A stretch of 64,000 nt of DNA from positions 333,560,001-333,624,000 of the forward strand of contig CM075977.1 in assembly GCA_038087875.1 (NCBI GenBank), given 5' to 3'. The translations under genes and the position numbers were made by a program. This DNA comes from Malacoraja senta. Its lineage: Eukaryota. Positions 11,638 to 56,938 of the stretch are shown one piece after another; positions within the stretch are counted from its first letter, which is position 1; every line of letters starts with the position of its first letter. The notes below the pieces were generated by a model. It had not been told where the DNA came from and ran no database searches. It worked only from the letters and a program-made list of their open reading frames with translations.

Positions 11638-14091
11638 TTGTGAGTGAATTTATGAACCTGGTTGAGTCCTTCAATCTGTCTCTACTCACCACTGGACCCA
11701 CGCACAAGCTTGGCCATACACTAGACCTAGTGCTTTCGTCTGGTCTCCCAACTCGTAACACAGATATTATTGATGCCTGCCTGTCTGACCATAGTGCTAT
11801 TATATTCGATATATCTCTGCCTTTCTCTCCCTCAAAATCCCATCTCCCTGCTCGCTACTCCCGCTACGTTAACTCCACGACGGCCAGTAAGTTCTCTGAA
11901 GCTTTCATAGCCGCCCCCGGCATCTGCACTATTGAGGCATCCACCCCCCATCTCAGTACCGACGACCTAATTTCTTTATTCAATAATACCTGCTCTTCCG
12001 TCCTGGATTCTGTTGCTCCTCTTAAAATGAAAAAGCCTAAGCCTAAAGGCGAGCCGTGACTCAATGATACCACCAGAGCCCTAAGAAGAGAATGCAGAAA
12101 ATCAGGAAGTACAAATCTGATAAGCTTCAAATTTCCTTTGAACTCCTGAAAAATAATCTTCACAAATACCAGGAAGCTGTAAAATCTGCAAGAACTAAAT
12201 ATTTTTTCACCCTTATCTCCAAAAACGCACAAAATTCCAAGGTCCTTTTTAGCACCATCACCTCCATCATTTGTCCTGCCATCAGCACCAGCCTAACTGG
12301 GTCCCCTGCTAAGTGCGAGGAATTTACCACATTTTTCACCAGCAAGGTAAAGAACATAAGAACGAATATTTCTCCTCCCACCCATGACCTGGCTGTCTCA
12401 TTGGTCTGCTCTTCAAAATTAGACTGTTTCCAACCCGTTACTCTACCCTCCCTTGTAAAACTGATCACCACCATGAAACCTACTACCTGCCCCCTCGACA
12501 CTGTCCCCTCTGCCCTCCTAAAGGACGTCATTACAACAGCCGGTCCCAGCATCCTCGCCATCTTCAACAGCTCTCTGGCCACTGGCACTGTACCTACCTG
12601 CTTCAAAAACCACTCCTGAAAAAACCTAACCTCGACCCCACCTTGCCAAGCAACTACAGACCCATTTCTAAACTGTCTTTCCTCTCAAAAGCCCTTGAAA
12701 AGGTAATTTTAAGTCAACTTATACCTTACCTTCACCAAAACACTATCTTGGAAACTTTCCAATCAGGTTTCAGGGCTCACCATAGCACAGTCTGCCTTGT
12801 TGAAGGTACACAATGACCTACTGCTCACCGTTGACTCTGGCGACTGGGCAATTCTGCTCCTTCTTGACCTCAGCGCAGCATTTGATACTGTCGACCACAC
12901 CATCCTAATTGACCATGGGGTTGGTGTTGGTGTTGATGGCACTGCCCTGAGCTGGTTCATCTCCTACCTCAAAGGTAGGAGTTTCTCGACTAACATAGGC
13001 AACTCTTTCTCCTCCCCAGCTAATCTCTGCTGTGGGGTTCCACAAGGTTCCATCCTTGGCCTCATTCTCTTCTCCCTGTATATGCTCCCCTTAGGCCAAG
13101 TCATTGAAAGGCACGGCATTTCCTTCCATTGCTACGCAGACGATATACAACTCTATCTCCCCCTGAAGCCCAAAAACCAATCAAATCTGTTTAACCTTAC
13201 CCACTGCCTTGGATATAAAGTGTTGGATGGCCCAGAACGTCCTCCAACTAAACGAGAGTAAGTCTGATGTCATCCTTCTCGGCCCCTCGGACTCAATCAA
13301 AATGATAGCAGGCAGCCTTGGAAGCCTTACCCCATTACTCAAACCTCACGTCAAAAACCTTGGCGTATTTGACTCAGTACTGAAATTTGACAAACAAGTC
13401 AATGCCGTGGTAAAAGCTAGCTTCTTTCAGCTTCGGACGATAGCTAAAATAAAACAATTCCTCCAGTTTGATGACCTCGAAAAGATCATCAACACATTCC
13501 TCCTCCAACCTAGATTACTGCAACTCCCTTTACACTGGCATCAGCCAATCTTCCCTGTCCTGCCTGCAACTGGTCCAAAACGCCGCATCGAGACTTCTGA
13601 CGGAACCACACATCACCCCGATCCTGGCCTCTCTCCACTGGCTCCCTGTGCGGTTCCGTATAAACTTCAAGATCCTCCTCCATGTCTACAAAGCCCTCAA
13701 TGGGCTTGCCCCCACCTACATAAAATGTCTTCTCACCCACCACTCCACCTCCAGGCCCCTCAGATCGGCCGACTTGGGGTTGCTGAATATCCCACAGTCT
13801 AGGCATAAGCTCAGGGGCGACCGCGCCTTTGCGGTTGCAGCCCCTAGACTGTGGAACAGCATCCCTTTTCCCATCAGAACTGCCCCCTCCATTGACTCTT
13901 TTAAGTCAAGACTAAAGACTTATCTATACTCCCAAGCCTTTCCTGACGTCCTCTGAGTGAGGGCTACATGTATATATGTATGTAGTTTGTTTTGTTTGTG
14001 CTATTCTTATAACAAATGTAAAGCACTTTGGCCAACAAGAGTTGTTTTTTAAATGTGCTATATAAATAAATGTGACTTGACTTGACTTGAC
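11638..14091 (+). mobile_element. L2-clade LINE, 5'-truncated, frameshifted EN-RT ORF2
   Basis: EN motifs GPTHKLGHTLDLV and LSDH; RT motifs LLDLSAAFDTVDH, GVPQGSILG, HCYADDIQLY; C-terminal HITPILASLHWLPV and GDRAFAVAAPRLWN; AATAAA then (GACTT)n tail. Confidence 0.95.
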
Positions 14092-14295: not shown

Positions 14296-14666
14296 GGGCC
14301 AGGAAGCGAGCGGGCAAGATCATCTCTGACCCCTCTCACCCTGGCCACAAACACTTTGAATCACTTCCCTCTGGAAGGCGACTCCGGATTGTCACATCTG
14401 CCACAGCCAGACATAAAAACAGTTTTTATCCATGAGTAGTTGCTCTACTCAACAGCCAAAAATCTGTAGCCTCCCTTTGATCTGGTATTTTGTTGGTTCA
14501 CATGCTTGATCAATGGTGTTTTATCATTAATGTTTTATTATTATTAATGTTTAGTGTTTTCTGAGTCATTCGTAACTGTCACTGTATGTCATGTTGTTAC
14601 TTGTGGGCGGAGCACCAAGGCAAATTCCTTGTATGTGAATACTTGGCCAATAAACTTACTTACTTA
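14296..14666 (+). mobile_element. Rex1/Babar LINE 3' end
   Basis: Encodes RAGKIISDPSHPGHKHFESLPSGRR..HKNSFYP, the typical Rex1 C-terminus; (CTTA)n tail; abuts a PLE-end remnant at 14264-14295. Confidence 0.9.
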
Positions 14667-17600
14667 TTTAAAAATAATTGGGGAGGGACAAACAGACTTG
14701 AATCAATGAATATGAATTAGCTTACAGACACTGGAAATTAAAAAAAAATTTAAACTCAAGAGTTTGCTCAGGAATGACAACGTGAATTATGTGCTGGTTG
14801 TTGGGGCACTGTTGGATCTGCAGAATCTGCCATGGTTTGGGCAGGAGGTGATATGTAGACAGACAGGCAGGTGAATAACATGGGTGATCGTCGGTTCCGT
14901 TTGCAGTTCTTGATGGGCTTTTGTATGCTCCCAACAAAGAGATTCAAAGTTCTCATTGAATCCCGATGTCCCTTCTTCTTTCGGAATAGTCATGGATTTT
15001 GGGGGTTCCCATGAGTCAGTGAGAACATTTCAGTTTTACAAGGCAGTTTGAGGATTAGTTTTGAGCCACCGCTGTCCTGGTAATCTCGGACCACCAGATT
15101 GGAATGTGTGACTTTTTCAGGAATCTCGTGTTGGGAATGTGAATGTCGTGGTTCACCATATGGAGCCAGCTGCGTTTAAAAATATATATATATGATGCCA
15201 AGTATATCGCCTGGGAGGAGAGGTAGATGAGAATGCATTGTCTACCCTGACTGCGGAAGAGTTTTACAGGAGTAGGTTTGGCGGTATCTCTCCAGTGCTT
15301 TGACGATCCTGCTGCTTGTAGTTCAGAACTTAGAAGCCTACAGGAGGGCATGGGTCAAATGCCCCTTGGTGGCCTTAAATTTTGAACTAGATTTTAGGTT
15401 TTAATCTTCAAATATTATTTTTCTCAAAGGCTCTACTGGCCCACAAGCGGTAAATTTCATCATCGACGCCTCTTTGCCGACATATAGTTCAGACAAACCC
15501 AACACTCTCCAACATATGCTGTCGAGGATTAGTTGTACTAACTTAGAAATTCTCCGATGCATTTTCCGTTGCTAATAAGGAATCTAAATTAGTATTGGAA
15601 ACGCCAGGCACGCAATATTTGAGACGTCGAAACCGAGATGACATAAGAGTACTTTACTGTAGAGTAAAATACTGAAGGATATTTTGTAAACAAAATTAAC
15701 CAATCTCCTGAAAATAGATTATCATTTTAGAATTTGGAGTGTTTGGATGATATGTACGTGATTGCATCTACCTTTTAAACCTCTGTTTCACTATTTGCTA
15801 GTCAACAACTTGAAAAGTCCGTCTGCAAACGTAGAAGAAACCTCTCAAGTGAAACCGCTTCGTGTCCGATTTTTGGGAACATCATTCATTAGATAATCCT
15901 ATAATTTCCGGGATCAAGAACAACATGGATTTATCACGGAACAGTGATAACTCGGTTTGTGTCTGTGCAGGTGCATTCGCGAATCTTGGTGAATGTCGGA
16001 TGACCACTCTTATTCAGCATAATTTAGCTCTCAATAGTTCTAATTTGCGGTTTTATTATCGTCGATGCAGCACGACGCGGGGAAAGCGGCATTTATCACA
16101 TGGCAACGAGTTCCCACAGCGTATCTAATTAATACCAAAAGAAATGCCAAAGAGACCAGCAATGCAGGTCCGGACGCAACCTGACACCCTACGCGCGCAA
16201 GCACTTTCAAACACAACCGATTTCTCGTGGCTTATGTGTGATCCAAGTGTTTGAATATTCCATCATGTGGTAATACATTCGTAAACCGAGTGATTTTCCA
16301 TTCACGTGCCTGGCTTCCAAAAGCTTTCCGAAGCCTGTACTTTGAACTGAAGCCAAAATACACTAGGCAGAAAAGTCGCTACGACAAAACCTAAGCACCC
16401 TTAAAATGGCCGTGGAATAAACTTCGAACACAAGTAGTTATGAATGTATATTTCGTCCGCATCGTGTTTTTGTTGCCGACCCTGCGTGTGTACTTATGCA
16501 AGCGGTAGTGAATTTGTGCTCGGGTTTAAACCGCTGCCACCAGACTTTGCTGGAAAGCGGTAGCGTCTGCAGCTAACTCCACAAACCAGTAAAAGCAACG
16601 CTGCCTTTTCCCACGATTGGCTCGCTGTGTTATATTTGGTCGAGGCCACCCCACAGAATTCTGTGCACGGCGTGTTTGTTCACTCGCTGCCCGGGCAGTG
16701 ATCACCGACCTAAACTTTGCTTCCTGTTAAAACTAGCGGGTTCATTTAGTTCACACTGCAGATTTTTTCTCTCTCGAAAGCTGGACTCTGCAAAGTGGGA
16801 CTACAGCATCACGACAGTGGGGATCACAGGGAAATCACGTTGGTGTCACCGGATCCTCCGATTGCTTTCCCGCTGTTACAGCCTTTTGAGCTAGACCGCG
16901 GCTGGATATTTGCGCGCATTAGTAGGCTGTACTATAGTGTTGTGGAGTATAGGTCGATAGCAACGGAACTCTCCAAGGTTTCAGACATTTCCATTACGTA
17001 TCCAGCACCTGCATTGACACTCGGCTCATCATCCTCACATGACCTGGGAACACGCTTTTTATATCAACCTGTGTAGTCAGGAGGAAATATTTTGGAGGAT
17101 GTTAAATAAGAGCTAGACGTTACAAAATTATCTTGTAGACGGAACATTTTCTGCTGGTCCGTCGGCCTGATTTCATATCGCGAAAACAAGGTTGTCGACT
17201 GAGGGGGGAAAAAAGGGGTGTGGAGTTTCAGCATTTTATAAACAATCCCCAATTCTGCTCTGAGCGTAAGTGCTAGTCGGAAATAACTATTTTTCCTGCG
17301 AACTGGATGAGAAAAGTGGGACTGTGATATTCAGTGGACTAAAACCGTGCTGTGATCTAACTCGCCCCGGTCATTAAGCAGAGATCTGGCGCCCGGTCTT
17401 GGCTAATCAGCGGAAGAGAACGATATTGTACACAAAAGAAAAGCTGGTGACCGGGGTTAAAAGTGTGCAGCCAGCCCATCTGAACTTTAATGTGAATTCG
17501 GTACATCACATACCGCTGGCGGAAACTGGACTCAAGCTGAGGGCACTGATGTTCATCGTATGGAAAACTTACTGTGATCGGCTGGTGCCAACGCGCCGGT

Positions 17601-21658: not shown

Positions 21659-22296
21659 TCGGATGACATTCCAATGTAGAAGTGAATGAAGACAGCAATG
21701 TTGGGAAGTTTTTTTCAAAAAATTGTTGAATTGAGTTGCTAACTTTCTTTAGGCAGTACTTGAAGAGGAATGGAGGAATTCTAAACAACAACATTCTAAG
21801 CACCATTTATTCTTCAAACTAGATGTGGACAAATTAACTATTGGAATGTCAGACACGACCAGATCTTGTCTGTATCACTTTTATTCGTTATTCTTTATTA
21901 TGATGAGACATTCAGCAGCAAATTTGATAACTACTTGGGAGGAAATTATTTCCAAGGCTATGGAGAGATGGCAGGGAAGTTGGATTGGATTGGAGAAAAA
22001 TCTTGTACATAACCAGCTAGGATTTAGAGGATCAATCACTTTCTTTCATGCAACAAGCTATCTGACACTCTTCTCTGGTTGTAACATTGACTTCATTTCA
22101 GAGATATTTCACTGGTTGTTGATTGCCCTTTCTGGTATATTAGCTGGTATTGTTATCATTCCTCCCTTGTCAATCTGATCATATTTAGAGAATCATCAAC
22201 AAATGGCTCTTTCCACACCATCATCTTTCATAGTGCATAAAGGTCTGTCTTTGGTACCATCCTATTATATATCTGTGTGGAGTTCCTCTATAATAT

Positions 22297-22470
22297 TTCA
22301 CCTTCCATCACAGCGAGGAATGTGGAGGAGTCACTGTGGTGGATGTTTATGTTAAAATGTATTTTGTGTGTCTTGTTGCGTTTTATTGGTATGACTGTAT
22401 GGCAAATCAAATTCCTCGTATGTTGCAAAACATACTTGTCTAATAAAGTATGATTATGATTATGATTATC
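22297..22470 (+). mobile_element. Non-coding retroposon 3' part (hairpin core plus Rex1-type tail, (TATGAT)n)
   Basis: CCTTCCATCACAGCGAGGAATGTGGAGGAGTCACTGTGGTGGATGTTTATG is shared with 22736-23113 and 24768-25475. Confidence 0.75.
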
Positions 22471-22682
22471 ATATCACTCAAAAGCATGGTATCAACGTCA
22501 CATGCATGTGGATGGTACTGACTTGTTGTCCAACATCCAGAAATGGATGAGCAAAACATCCCTCAAATTACATATAATTTTCAATTTACATCCATGATAT
22601 TTGACCCCCTAGCTACTCATTGCACACCTGTTTCTGAAATTTAAAAATAAACTAAACCAGATAATCCACTTCCTCCTGGATG

Positions 22683-23380
22683 ATTATCAACATAGGAGTG
22701 CCTCAAGGCTATGTGCTCAGTCACCTGCTATACTCAAAGGTTCAAAGGTTCAAATTTATTTGTCACAAGGTGCAGTGAAATGAATTTACCATGCAGCGTT
22801 ACAATTAAAAAAGGACATAATACACAACATAATTCAACACAGACATCCACCACAGCATTCTTCACTGTGGTGGAAGGCAATACACTTCAGACAGTCCTCC
22901 TCCTCCTCCCTTGTTCACCCATGGTCGGGGCCCTGACCCTCCTTAGTCACCGCCACGGATGGCCCGATGTTCAAGCCCTCTGGTCGGGATGGTCGGAATA
23001 CCGACGTCGGGACAGGTCGAGCACACCCCGTGGCCCGGAGCTCCCAAATCGGCCAGCTCCTTACCGGAGACCGCGGCTTCAAGATGTTGTAGGCTGCAGG
23101 TTGTTGGTCGGAGCTCTGTCTATACCCATGACTATACTCTGTCTATACCCATAACTGTGCAGCCAGACACAGCTCCAAATTTGCCAATGATACCACAGTT
23201 GTTGGATGAATAACGGGTATTGAGGAGGCGGAGTACAGGAGGGAGATTCATAATCTGATTGAATGGTGCCAGAACAATAACCTTGCTCCAAACATCTGCC
23301 AGTTAAAGAAACTGCTTGCTGACTTCAGGAATGGTAAGTCAAGAATTCATGAACCTGCCTTCATCAACAGGACAGCGGTG
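22683..23380 (+). mobile_element. Rex1/Babar RT fragment, interrupted at 22736-23131
   Basis: Rejoined translation GVPQGYVLSHLLYS|VYTHNC..KFANDTTVVG..EYRREI..WCQNNNL..DFR. Confidence 0.8.
22736..23113 (-). mobile_element. GC-rich non-coding retroposon with Rex1-type tail (TTGAACCT)n
   Basis: TSD CTATACTC at 22728-22735 and 23132-23139; shared hairpin core at 22846-22874. Confidence 0.75.
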
Positions 23381-23865
23381 TTATTGCTGTAGTATGTAAG
23401 AATCTTATCGTGCTACTGCTGGTACATATGACAAGTAAAGACACAAAAAACTGCAGGTTGGAATCTTGAACAAAAAAAACAAAGTGTTGGAGGAACTTGG
23501 ATAAAGTGCTGGAGGGCAAACTTCCCTCCACAGATACTACCTGACCCACTGGCCTCTCTTATTTTGCTCTCATGAAACCTGAAGTCATCTGTGCCCTAAT
23601 TCACTTTTATTCTAAATCCTATTTATTCTTCATTTGCCCGCTTGCTTACACAATAGTTTCCAGTTAAGTACTGGCTCAACTTTAAATTTTTTATCCCTCC
23701 ATATTCTTGCTCCTTCCAGATTGTGAAATCTCTTCTAACTGTGATATTTGTGCTTTTCAATTTCTGGAGTTAGACACATCCTTACATTTATTCTCTCCAC
23801 CATTGGCTATTATGGCTTCTGTGTCAAGTTCTTACATTCTGGAATTTCCTTGCAAAACCCCTTTC

Positions 23866-24053
23866 TGGGCAAAGTATTTATGATACAGAGTCATTATATA
23901 TCATAACAAGTAATTTAATTTGTATACATACAGAGACCATCGAGATGATTACTGTAGGCTCCGAATAGTAAGTTAAAACTAAAAAAAACATCATGGCTGC
24001 CCGCATGCCACAAGGTGGTGGTGTGAAAACCTGACATGGATTATGGATCTACA
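23866..24053 (-). repeat. 3' LTR (188 bp)
   Basis: Direct repeat of 25625-25864, about 14 differences counted by eye plus one 51-bp indel. Confidence 0.93.
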
Positions 24054-24064
24054 TCCCCCTTCTT
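24054..24064 (-). promoter_or_regulatory. Polypurine tract
   Basis: AAGAAGGGGGA directly before the TGTAGATCC start of the 3' LTR on the minus strand. Confidence 0.85.
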
Positions 24065-24218
24065 GGGCTTTTGCCCAAAGGGCAAACATAAAGCATGCAG
24101 AAGTAATATGTATATAAAGCTATAAAAAGTAACTATCATCTGCAGTAAAGCAATGGAGGATATACTTAAGTAATATAAGTAATGTCAGTTATAGTTAATT
24201 AGAGTCCAAGATCCGCAT

Positions 24219-25563
24219 CTAGATACAATCCCTGTAACTAGCCACAGGCTTGCTGACCCGTCCTGCACGCGTACGATACAGGCCTTCAGACGTGCCCCTC
24301 ACAGGAGATGTCGCCACAGGCACGGCCTCCATTGGGAGTTTCTTAGCAGACGACGACTCAACCAGCACAGATTTCGCAGGGGATTTGTCGACAGACTTTA
24401 CGGGGGCTTCGTCATTGGCACCAGCCCCATTGGCAGTCCTTTGCAGGTACAGAAACAAAGTTCTGATCACCATCTGCTGTCACATGTCCCTCATTCTGGT
24501 ATCTTGAGAAAAATTTCACACGTTCGATGAGTGGATTAGCTTGAGGGTCATACAACTGTCAAAACTTTCTCTTGAGACACTCCGGGTCGTCCGGCGACTC
24601 AGCCGGGGTCACGATCAGCGCCCCACCATCGGCAAGTTGATGAGTTATTGCCACAGCATACACAAACTGTTGTGCTCATTTGTTAGCTTCATCTCCTGTG
24701 AGGAGAAGGAGCATGCTTGCACGGACCATTGCCGGCTTGTCATGAGAAGTTGCAGCAATGAACAAATAAGGTTCATAAGGTTCATTTATTGTCACATACA
24801 CCAATTGGTGTAGTGAAATTTCACTGGCCAGGTCAGTCATACAATTTAAAAAAGGAACAGACTCAAAAAACACATTTTAACATAAACATCCATCAGCGAC
24901 TCCTACACATTCCTCACTGAGATGGAAGGCGAAATAAAGTTCAAGTCCTTCCCTTTTTGTTCTTCCTTGGTCTTGAGTCCCGTAGCCGGTGGCGTTCGGG
25001 CCCTCCGCGTCGAGGCGTTCAGCTCCTGCATCGGGGGGATGTCAGCTCCCCTGTGCCGGGCGATCGAACCTCGCGTCGGGGCTGGACGAACCTTCTGTGG
25101 CGTTGGAGCTCCCGACTAGTCTCTCCTGAGACTGTGAGCCCTTGAAGGTAAGTCCGCAGGCCGCGGTGGGAGCGATCCCAGGCAAGGGATCCGCTCTGAT
25201 GGTAAGTCCGCGCCCCGCGGTAGGGCTCACGACAGTCCGAGGCGGCTTTTCAACTCCATTGATGGTAGGCCGCAGAGCCCAGAGAATGTGATCCGAAACT
25301 TGATCACCTCTCCGGGAAGGTAAGAACCTGAAAAAAAAGTTTACCCCTCCCCCCCACATAAAACAAACAGAAGAACATTAAAACAAACTTTAAACAAACG
25401 CTAAAAATAACAAAAAGGATGAAAAAACGAACAGACTGCCGGCAGGGCTGCCATCTCCCTCCTCCGGCAACCCCTAATCATACTGTCGCTCAAAGGTACG
25501 CCACCGCTGTCCGATTCTGCTATCAAAAATGGGTGGGTCAGGTTTTCTGAAAGCTTCAGCCAT
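24219..25563 (-). pseudogene. Gypsy gag N-terminus joined to a pol (integrase) C-terminal remnant
   Basis: ATG at 25563: MAEAFRKPDPPIFDSRIGQRWRTFERQYD|LFIAATSHDKP..AESPDDPECLKRKF*..ERVKFFSRYQ after removing 24768-25475; ends YRTRAGRVSKPVASYRDCI*; internal stops. Confidence 0.85.
24768..25475 (-). mobile_element. GC-rich non-coding retroposon (~710 bp) inserted in gag
   Basis: Removal restores the gag frame (AAT duplicated); tail AATTTCAC-hairpin-GTGACAATAAA(TGAACCTTA)n; internal repeats CCGCGG..GCGGACTTACC. Confidence 0.85.
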
Positions 25564-25624: not shown

Positions 25625-25864
25625 TGTGCAAAGTACTTATGATACAGAGTCATTATATTTCATAACAAGTACTTTAATTTGTGTACATACAGAGACCATC
25701 AAGATGAGTACTGTAGGCTTCGAATCGTAAGTTAAAACAAAAAAATATATAATGGCTGCCCGCATGCCACAAGGTGGTGGTGTGGAAAACCTGACATGGA
25801 TTATGGATCAGGTCATCAGCAGCAAAACCACATGGATTAAATCAGCAACACTGTTTGATCTACA
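25625..25864 (-). repeat. 5' LTR (240 bp)
   Basis: Matches the 3' LTR plus an extra segment at 25810-25860 bounded by GATC repeats. Confidence 0.9.
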
Positions 25865-55643: not shown

Positions 55644-56423
55644 TGGGCCTGTCCCACTTAGGCGATTTTTCAGCAGTCGCGTGAAATTAAACCGGCAACT
55701 GGAACGGCGACTGTCAGAGTGGAACACACACACACACACACACACAAACACATCGCTTCCTTCACCAGCCCGTTATGCAGGCGGGGGACAGGGCAAGCGG
55801 GGGGAGTGCTGTTTAAAAAATTCACACGGTGCAAAGCCAAGGTGAAACAGACACACACCGCGATGAACAGGAAGGTTGGCGCTGTAAAAAGCCGGCTAAA
55901 GCACAGTGTACTGTAAGTCCTTTAAAAGAGTGGGGGAAGAGGGGGGAGAAGGGGGAAGAAGGAGTGGAGACAAATTTTAAGAAGCCAGAGATACACTGCT
56001 GTGAAGCTCGGCGGACATTAACATTAACGGTCGGTATCCTTCGTTCTGAAAACCACTGCTTACCTTTTTTTCCCCCTATGAGCCAATGAAATTCACCGGT
56101 CAGCACCGGCTACAACCTACGAGAACCTCCAAGAACCTTTGACCTCCTGGCAACCCATTAGGACCTCCTGGCGACCCATCTACGGCTTGAGAATTTTCGC
56201 TACTCTCCATGGCGGCTTCATTCTAGTCGCCGCTAATTTTTCAACATGTTGAAAAATTCACGATGCCATAATGAGGCCGCGACTAGTTCCCAGAATGCGG
56301 GAACTCCTCACGACCATGAAGGCGACTCCCCGGAAACCCCCACCCGCGAACATATGGCGACCATGTGGCGACTGCATAGTCTCCTGCAGTCGCCTAAAGA
56401 GTCACCTAAGTGGGACGGGCCCA
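55644..56423. mobile_element. MITE, probably PIF/Harbinger
   Basis: TIRs TGGGCCTGTCCCACTTAGGCGA and TCACCTAAGTGGGACGGGCCCA; flanks TGA and TTA (imperfect TWA TSD); no transposase. Confidence 0.8.
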
Positions 56424-56479
56424 TTAGGTTCCAAAGCCGTTGTTGCACCCAGTACCCTCAGTTGATACTTGACGTCTCC

Positions 56480-56938
56480 AGTGGGCCGCTGTGGCAGACG
56501 CCTCCCGACAGGCCGCAAAATAGCCGAGGCCGGAACCCCCGCGGGTCGGAGCCCACGGCTGGTGGTGTCAGCAAAGCCCACGGCCGAGGTTGGGGTCCGT
56601 GTGCCGTGAGTCAACGGAGCCTGGGTCGGCAGAGAAGACCTGGCCGCTATAGTGGGGAGGTCGGTGCGGCAGGCGGTGATGGCACAGCCCGACCGACGGA
56701 CGAGGACGGACCATGTGGAAGTGAGCTGAGGGAATGAATAAAGGAGGACCTGGCGTGGGGGAGCCGCCATGAGGGAGGGGGTGGGGGAGAAAACAAAGGG
56801 GGACCTGGTGCGGATACTCTGTCACTTTGTCAGTGCCCTTTACGGGTGACTATTTGCATACCTTGGATATGCAAGCAAAGAATTTCACTGTGACTTGTCA
56901 CATGTGACAATAAAGTAATCATTCATTAATTTATTCAT
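56480..56938 (+). mobile_element. GC-rich non-coding retroposon with Rex1-type tail
   Basis: CpG-rich body; ends GAATTTCACTGTGACTTGTCACATGTGACAATAAA then (ATTC)n-like. Confidence 0.7.

Follow-up and report, generated by a model that had tools for sequence, protein, structure and literature searches.

Three elements in the 64,000-nucleotide stretch of Malacoraja senta DNA analyzed here (the window; positions 333560001-333624000 of contig C1) are copies of one non-coding family, 700 to 900 nt long, and this family is a retroposon, not the 3' untranslated region (UTR) of a LINE. Behind one and the same hairpin, tails have been exchanged between its subfamilies. The best explanation, which we hold to be quite probable, is a single abundant family of non-coding, non-tRNA retroposons with Rex1-type tails, tail exchange and a conserved stem, propagated by the mechanism proposed below. 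A preliminary description of the window had already seen in the elements a non-coding retroposon, not of tRNA type, that conserves a hairpin; our analysis supports that reading.

The first element, E1 (22296..22470, + strand), is a 5'-truncated copy of subfamily F1, 97% identical to longer copies. It consists of the conserved hairpin (22304..22343, +; a predicted stem of 11 to 13 bp with a variable loop), a U-rich linker, a tail of type T1 (22408..22450, +; a stem-loop followed by AATAAA, folding z-score -3.4) and an (ATGATT)n end. E2 (22736..23117, - strand) is a 5'-truncated copy of subfamily F2, 91% identical to a longer copy, and retains the 3' half of a GC-rich body, the hairpin (22846-22874) and a tail of type T3. 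E3 (24765..25476, - strand) is a near-full copy of subfamily F3a: a fixed 5' end and a head with a T-rich stretch and a G-run (about 25300-25476) are followed by a CpG-rich body with a short internal deletion, the hairpin (24889-24926), tail T2 and a short tandem repeat end. The stem-loop of T2 (24780..24822, -; folding z-score -3.2) belongs to an exchanged module. The three elements had been delimited previously, with their common motif and stem, and they stand as described; E1 and E3 are 83% identical over 106 nt (E = 3e-24).

An old and broken fragment of a Rex1-type reverse transcriptase (RT) adjoins E2 (23120..23380, +; about 40% amino acid identity, E values of 1e-16 to 1e-19) and is likely the host sequence of the E2 insertion. 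At 23120-23165, within this fragment, host sequence (about 23 nt) is duplicated at the truncated 5' end of E2. As for E3, contigs of sequencing runs X1 and X16 join position 24764 to 25476 and provide an empty site, although the flank appears multi-copy and this could be a paralogous locus. Direct repeats of 164 nt (23866-24029 and 25625-25788, 91% identical) lie on both sides of the E3 host sequence; they may be the ends of another element.

Longer relatives of E1 and E2 reach about 750 nt in F1 and about 850 nt in F2, among many shorter copies; the two elements are therefore 5'-truncated, E1 just before the hairpin and E2 in mid-body. The preliminary description had taken the bodies to differ, as modular and unrelated parts. 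This view had to be abandoned, since the consensus bodies are homologous: those of F1 and F3 are 82.3% identical over 690 columns, and those of F2 and F3 about 69%, being alignable in blocks. From 5' to 3', a family copy begins at a fixed 5' end with a T-rich stretch and a G-run, continues into a GC-rich, internally repetitive body that leads to the hairpin, and closes with a linker rich in U, a terminal stem-loop plus AATAAA and a short tandem repeat. In four copies, the body has a GC content of 63 to 66% and an observed to expected CpG ratio of 0.85 to 1.05. The 5' end of the E3 subfamily has a fixed position, some 20 nt upstream of the start motif named earlier: the 30 best-scoring matches to E3, a sample biased to full length, all begin at query position 12 or before, and all share the same tail end. 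The 5' motif that is shared measures only about 20 nt and was found in 62 of 108 heads.

The family is abundant. Seventy-five arbitrarily placed stretches of 10 kb held 19 hairpin matches and 10 head matches (reversed controls, 0), from which we estimate some 49,000 copies (30,000 to 77,000) in the 1.94-Gb genome; copy number multiplied by length gives a rough figure of 1% of the genome. Top-match copies diverge from their own consensus by a median of 4 to 7%, and sequencing runs of six organisms contain at least half of the sampled words of E3. GGTRAG splice-donor-like motifs occur 1.33 times per copy in antisense and 0.26 times in sense among 140 copies, with the strand comparison as sole control (for example at 25140-25330, +); family bodies could give rise to exonization in introns.

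Copies bear the marks of retroposition, with variable 5' truncation and tandem-repeat ends. Flank duplications of at least 6 nt accompany 6 of 22 F3a copies, compared to 2.2% of mismatched pairs, and are missing from the other 16. A hairpin lies within 2.2 kb downstream of 152 of the 165 head matches; the remaining 13 are explained by the end of a locus, by interruption or degeneration of the copy, or by insertion of Rex1 into it. It is very improbable that all three elements are long 3'UTRs of autonomous LINEs. The 5' ends are fixed and the flanks unrelated, the sole pair that shares its flanks being a duplicated locus, and an intact head is present 0.5 to 1 kb upstream in 36 of 60 tail-selected copies. 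LINE protein matches do exist in 14 of 115 upstream flanks, and at the loci L270 and L210 a Rex1 C-terminus of like orientation lies 130 to 380 nt upstream, but such flank matches are mixed in orientation and mostly fall in mid-ORF. Moreover, among 160 Rex1-type ends examined (many from families that were searched for, some counted twice), the 87 with a recognizable tail have no hairpin in their 3'UTRs. The preliminary description had named a long LINE 3'UTR with ORF2 upstream as the observation that would speak against a retroposon. We looked for a Rex1 C-terminus upstream of exact tail matches, taking those that come first along C1, and found none in 30 T1, 70 T2 and 30 T8 loci (0/130); the retroposon reading withstood this examination and the comparisons given above.

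The family does not code for protein: the reading frame was kept in 3 of the 21 indels that separate F1 from F3, and Rex1 protein matches were absent from 140 family bodies, in agreement with what had been proposed. Nor was a small-RNA head detected. Rfam gave no match to tRNA, 5S, 7SL or snRNA in the region and eight loci, ARAGORN predicted 0 tRNA genes, and an A box and a B box were each found in 1 of 140 copies, so that the earlier statement that tRNA A and B boxes are lacking is borne out. T5 runs would stop Pol III; they are present in 136 of 140 heads, and therefore argue against Pol III transcription. Two other candidates were rejected. Rfam matches to snoRNA, lncRNA, sRNA and miRNA in the same region and eight loci were weak and below threshold, and for a supposed U1-derived segment the genome's own U1 failed to exceed shuffles in any of 8 copies. 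Judging only by the CpG-rich body and the T-runs, transcription would be carried out by Pol II, from an internal promoter in head and body.

The window also contains the 3' end of an autonomous Rex1-type LINE family, RexA (14296..14667, +), which is devoid of the hairpin and constitutes a candidate partner class for T1. Longer RexA copies have RVT_1 (RT) and PF09004 domains, APE-like motifs recognized by eye and a repeat end, for a full length of about 3.3 kb. We take Rex1 to be the clade of this LINE. Its layout, with an APE-like and RT ORF and a repeat end, fits passages of PMC6274825, in which Rex1 elements have an APE and RT ORF and a conserved 3'UTR followed by oligonucleotide repeats. 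Two RexA 3' ends, at 1568-1747 and 14487-14666, are 99% identical, as in a young family. Elsewhere in the genome, Rex1-type copies (L241-L244) retain uninterrupted frames of 993 to 1174 codons, and some LINE families of this genome are therefore young. The 3' part of another RT-bearing LINE, presumably L2/CR1-like, occupies 12500-13940 (+) and has a tandem-repeat end. At about 56420-56920 (+) lies a GC-rich, apparently non-coding repeat that has a Rex1-type tail and no hairpin; related pieces occur in about 10 loci, and it is possibly a second Rex1-tailed non-autonomous family.

The tails of the family span the three tail classes, defined by sequence and predicted fold, that are seen among the 87 Rex1-type tails. 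T1 agrees with the tail of a RexA relative in 31 of 37 columns, and T2 with its nearest LINE tail, from another family, in 27 of 36, each pair having the same predicted fold layout; T4 and T5 are nearest to a third LINE family, and T8 has no match among the 9 LINE tails examined. The 50 to 60 nt that precede the tail also resemble Rex1-type 3' ends. By these shared classes of sequence and fold, the 3' part of the family is derived from a LINE 3' end, and its tail class indicates that the family likely uses Rex1 proteins. It had been noted earlier that the tail of E1 resembles the LINE end at 14296 and that E2 and E3 carry another type; indeed, the tail class of E1 is that of the LINE family at this position. 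The matching of each tail to an autonomous family, proposed at the same time, succeeded at the level of the class for T1 and T2, and no identical autonomous tail came to light in the 130 loci.

Exchange of tails between subfamilies is apparent from several observations. Tails of at least seven types are found behind one and the same hairpin. We calculated a maximum likelihood tree (IQ-TREE) from the bodies only of 52 hand-picked copies out of the 140, the root not being inferred. In this tree F3a, the T2-tailed subfamily of E3, forms a clade (100/99) within F3b, which lies within T1-tailed F1 lineages (starred branches), and the other carriers of T2, the F5 subfamilies, are located across the tree. 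Forcing the T2 and T8 rows together was rejected (p-AU 3.4e-5, for a group named after the first tree had been seen). F3a and F3b are alike through the junction as far as the tail-opening motif, beyond which they diverge; the sister form, in which the F3 junction is followed by T1, has 328 exact matches. A second swap involves T8, which is nested in the T2 clade: the 30 T8 loci inspected all belong to the family, 26 having a hairpin match and 4 being truncated or deleted. The switch point is the motif that opens every tail. Exact tail matches in the genome number 2,449 for T1, 1,797 for T2 and 792 for T8. The tail exchange surmised in the preliminary description is thus confirmed.

The source of the exchanged tails is a separate question. 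Each tail might have come straight from an autonomous Rex1 family of its own, which would enable the element to switch partners; the three Rex1 classes covered by the family tails are in keeping with this, as is T8, which is unlike the other family tails and therefore came from outside its clade. We nevertheless regard this scheme as rather unlikely, since no LINE turned up among the 130 tail-selected loci and since the T2 tail of E3, so imperfectly matched by any LINE, agrees without a difference over 35 nt with the tail of the distant F5 subfamilies. Furthermore, among the first 70 of the 1,797 T2 loci along C1, only 4 carry the F3 junction, and the remainder are of the F5 type. The likely donor of the E3 tail, as far as such sequence comparisons tell, is therefore a sibling subfamily.

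The hairpin is the most conserved block in an alignment of 21 representatives. Among 20 natural copies, 95.7% of the cells are paired, against 34 to 57% when the structure is slid, and loop lengths range from 3 to about 20 nt; the stem is thus conserved despite changes of the loop, as had been claimed. Changes on both sides of a pair were found in 15 cells, in 3 of 13 pairs. The covariation check that had been suggested gave a divided answer: the covariation score and the count of changed cells were reached in 0 of 500 shuffles, but the count of covarying pairs was as high in 302 of 500, and that of further pair types in 490 of 500, the structure being derived from the same sequences as those used in the test. 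A change from A-U to C-G is restricted to one clade, and the covariation represents perhaps two or three events. Folding z-scores of single copies are uneven (E1 -1.4, E2 -4.2, E3 -0.4), and single copies are therefore partly decayed. Taken over the alignment, selection has likely acted on the stem. Consensus folding revealed no convincing second structure in the head and upstream body. The hairpin resides 60 to 90 nt ahead of the terminal stem-loop and keeps this position through tail swaps, a constancy that points to a possible function in loading or stabilizing the RNA.

We propose the following cycle. Transcription would be carried out by Pol II from an internal promoter located in head and body; the Rex1 RT and endonuclease would bind the terminal stem-loop of the RNA and prime at the terminal short repeat. 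Tails would be replaced, through template switching or recombination at the shared motif that opens them, with a sibling subfamily as donor in at least one case; the resulting chimera would then amplify. The upstream hairpin might aid the loading of the RNA onto the RT, or its survival for the RT, whatever the tail; this is the weakest step of the proposal.

The same mechanism could operate in an element of more ordinary origin. Head and body may stem from a Rex1-type LINE, extinct or unsampled, whose 5' region became joined to its 3' end, with tail exchange as a later event. Such bipartite non-autonomous LINEs are known and are thought to be transcribed by Pol II (passages of PMC5786205), the first part of the head, a short motif and a T-rich run, is like the 5' end of RexA, and the Rex1 likeness just ahead of the tail would also be accounted for. 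However, blastn and tblastn matched none of the 140 bodies to two full ORFs or to the first kilobase at the 5' end of four Rex1-type families, and the head profile scored no higher than shuffles on 6 of 7 Rex1 5' ends from these four families, the seventh reaching -1.6 bits, which is not significant. In the Rex1 elements sampled, the ORF begins nearly at the 5' terminus and a GC-rich leader of 500 nt is lacking, and only RTE, Ingi, Vingi and R2 are given as sources in the passages of PMC5786205 concerned. A bipartite origin is possible, though on balance not probable; a Rex1 origin of the head was set aside for the four families, on which profile, blastn and tblastn were all negative. Apparent cases of the family acting as a Rex1 5'UTR were likewise dismissed: at L121 the family copy is separate and has its own tail, and at L253 and L346 the LINE is inserted into a family copy. 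Rex1-type LINEs inserted into family copies were observed at L253, L346 and L120/L122 (possibly also at L347), and at L346 the copy resumes after the LINE.

A full-text search at the level of titles and abstracts found no published description of the family, which supplements, Dfam or Repbase may already hold. Returning to the retroposon family with exchanged tails, we advance with considerable reserve the idea that it represents an uncatalogued class, namely large, SINE-like Rex1 parasites of several related fish, independent of Pol III, having a head that does not come from the partner, a hairpin that serves independently of the partner, and tails that are passed on as modules. If this were true, tail modules, some of them from source LINEs that have vanished, would allow the family to persist beyond any single Rex1 lineage. 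F3a and F3b, with near-identical bodies and two different tails, offer a natural experiment, and the specificity of tail and RT and the role of the internal domain are therefore directly testable. For annotation, copies are liable to be mislabelled as Rex1 3'UTRs or as unknown repeats.

Compared to known systems, the family falls between categories. An autonomous LINE would have an APE/RT ORF upstream of the hairpin, and none of the 130 tail-selected loci does. With SINEs, it shares a LINE-type tail (at the class level), a non-coding body and 5'-truncated copies; it has no small-RNA head with Pol III boxes. With bipartite LINEs, it has in common a LINE-derived 3' part and the lack of an ORF, its 5' part showing the short RexA motif and no significant alignment to four families. 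The ORF-less non-autonomous LINEs described in passages of PMC5786205 (derived from RTE, Ingi, Vingi and R2; RTESINE1/2, WALLSI3) are also non-coding, without a small-RNA head and with a fixed 5' end, a LINE-type 3' end and presumed Pol II transcription, and tail exchange is described for them. The present family differs by its Rex1-type tail, from a clade absent in that source as far as its consulted text goes (the word Rex1 occurs 0 times), by the lack of a detected parent LINE for the 5' part, by a conserved internal hairpin, and by at least seven tail types. According to passages of the same 2018 paper, only four LINE clades yield ORF-less non-autonomous derivatives, sampling bias being left open; a non-tRNA family of some 50,000 copies with Rex1-type tails would add to that list a clade or a new route.

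A pairing with a Rex1 LINE, which we deduce here from the tail class, has a precedent in SINE2-5_NV of Nematostella, a non-autonomous element paired with Rex1-24_NV in passages of PMC3747384. SINE2-5_NV has a tRNA head, whereas our family has none, is 700 to 900 nt long and has several tails. The CORE-, V- and Deu-SINEs, as well as HE1/HER1 of sharks and rays (passages of PMC3747384), resemble it by a conserved internal block and by LINE-derived tails that change, and bivalve HCD SINEs (PMC11481361) by a conserved central domain with changing LINE partners. The CORE-SINE-like character attributed to the family in the preliminary description holds only as an analogy, there being no tRNA head: CORE-, V- and Deu-type SINEs have tRNA or 5S heads and, in the table passages of PMC3747384, CR1/L2-type partners, whereas here the conserved block is a hairpin of about 40 nt close to the 3' end, and homology between subfamilies extends over the whole body.
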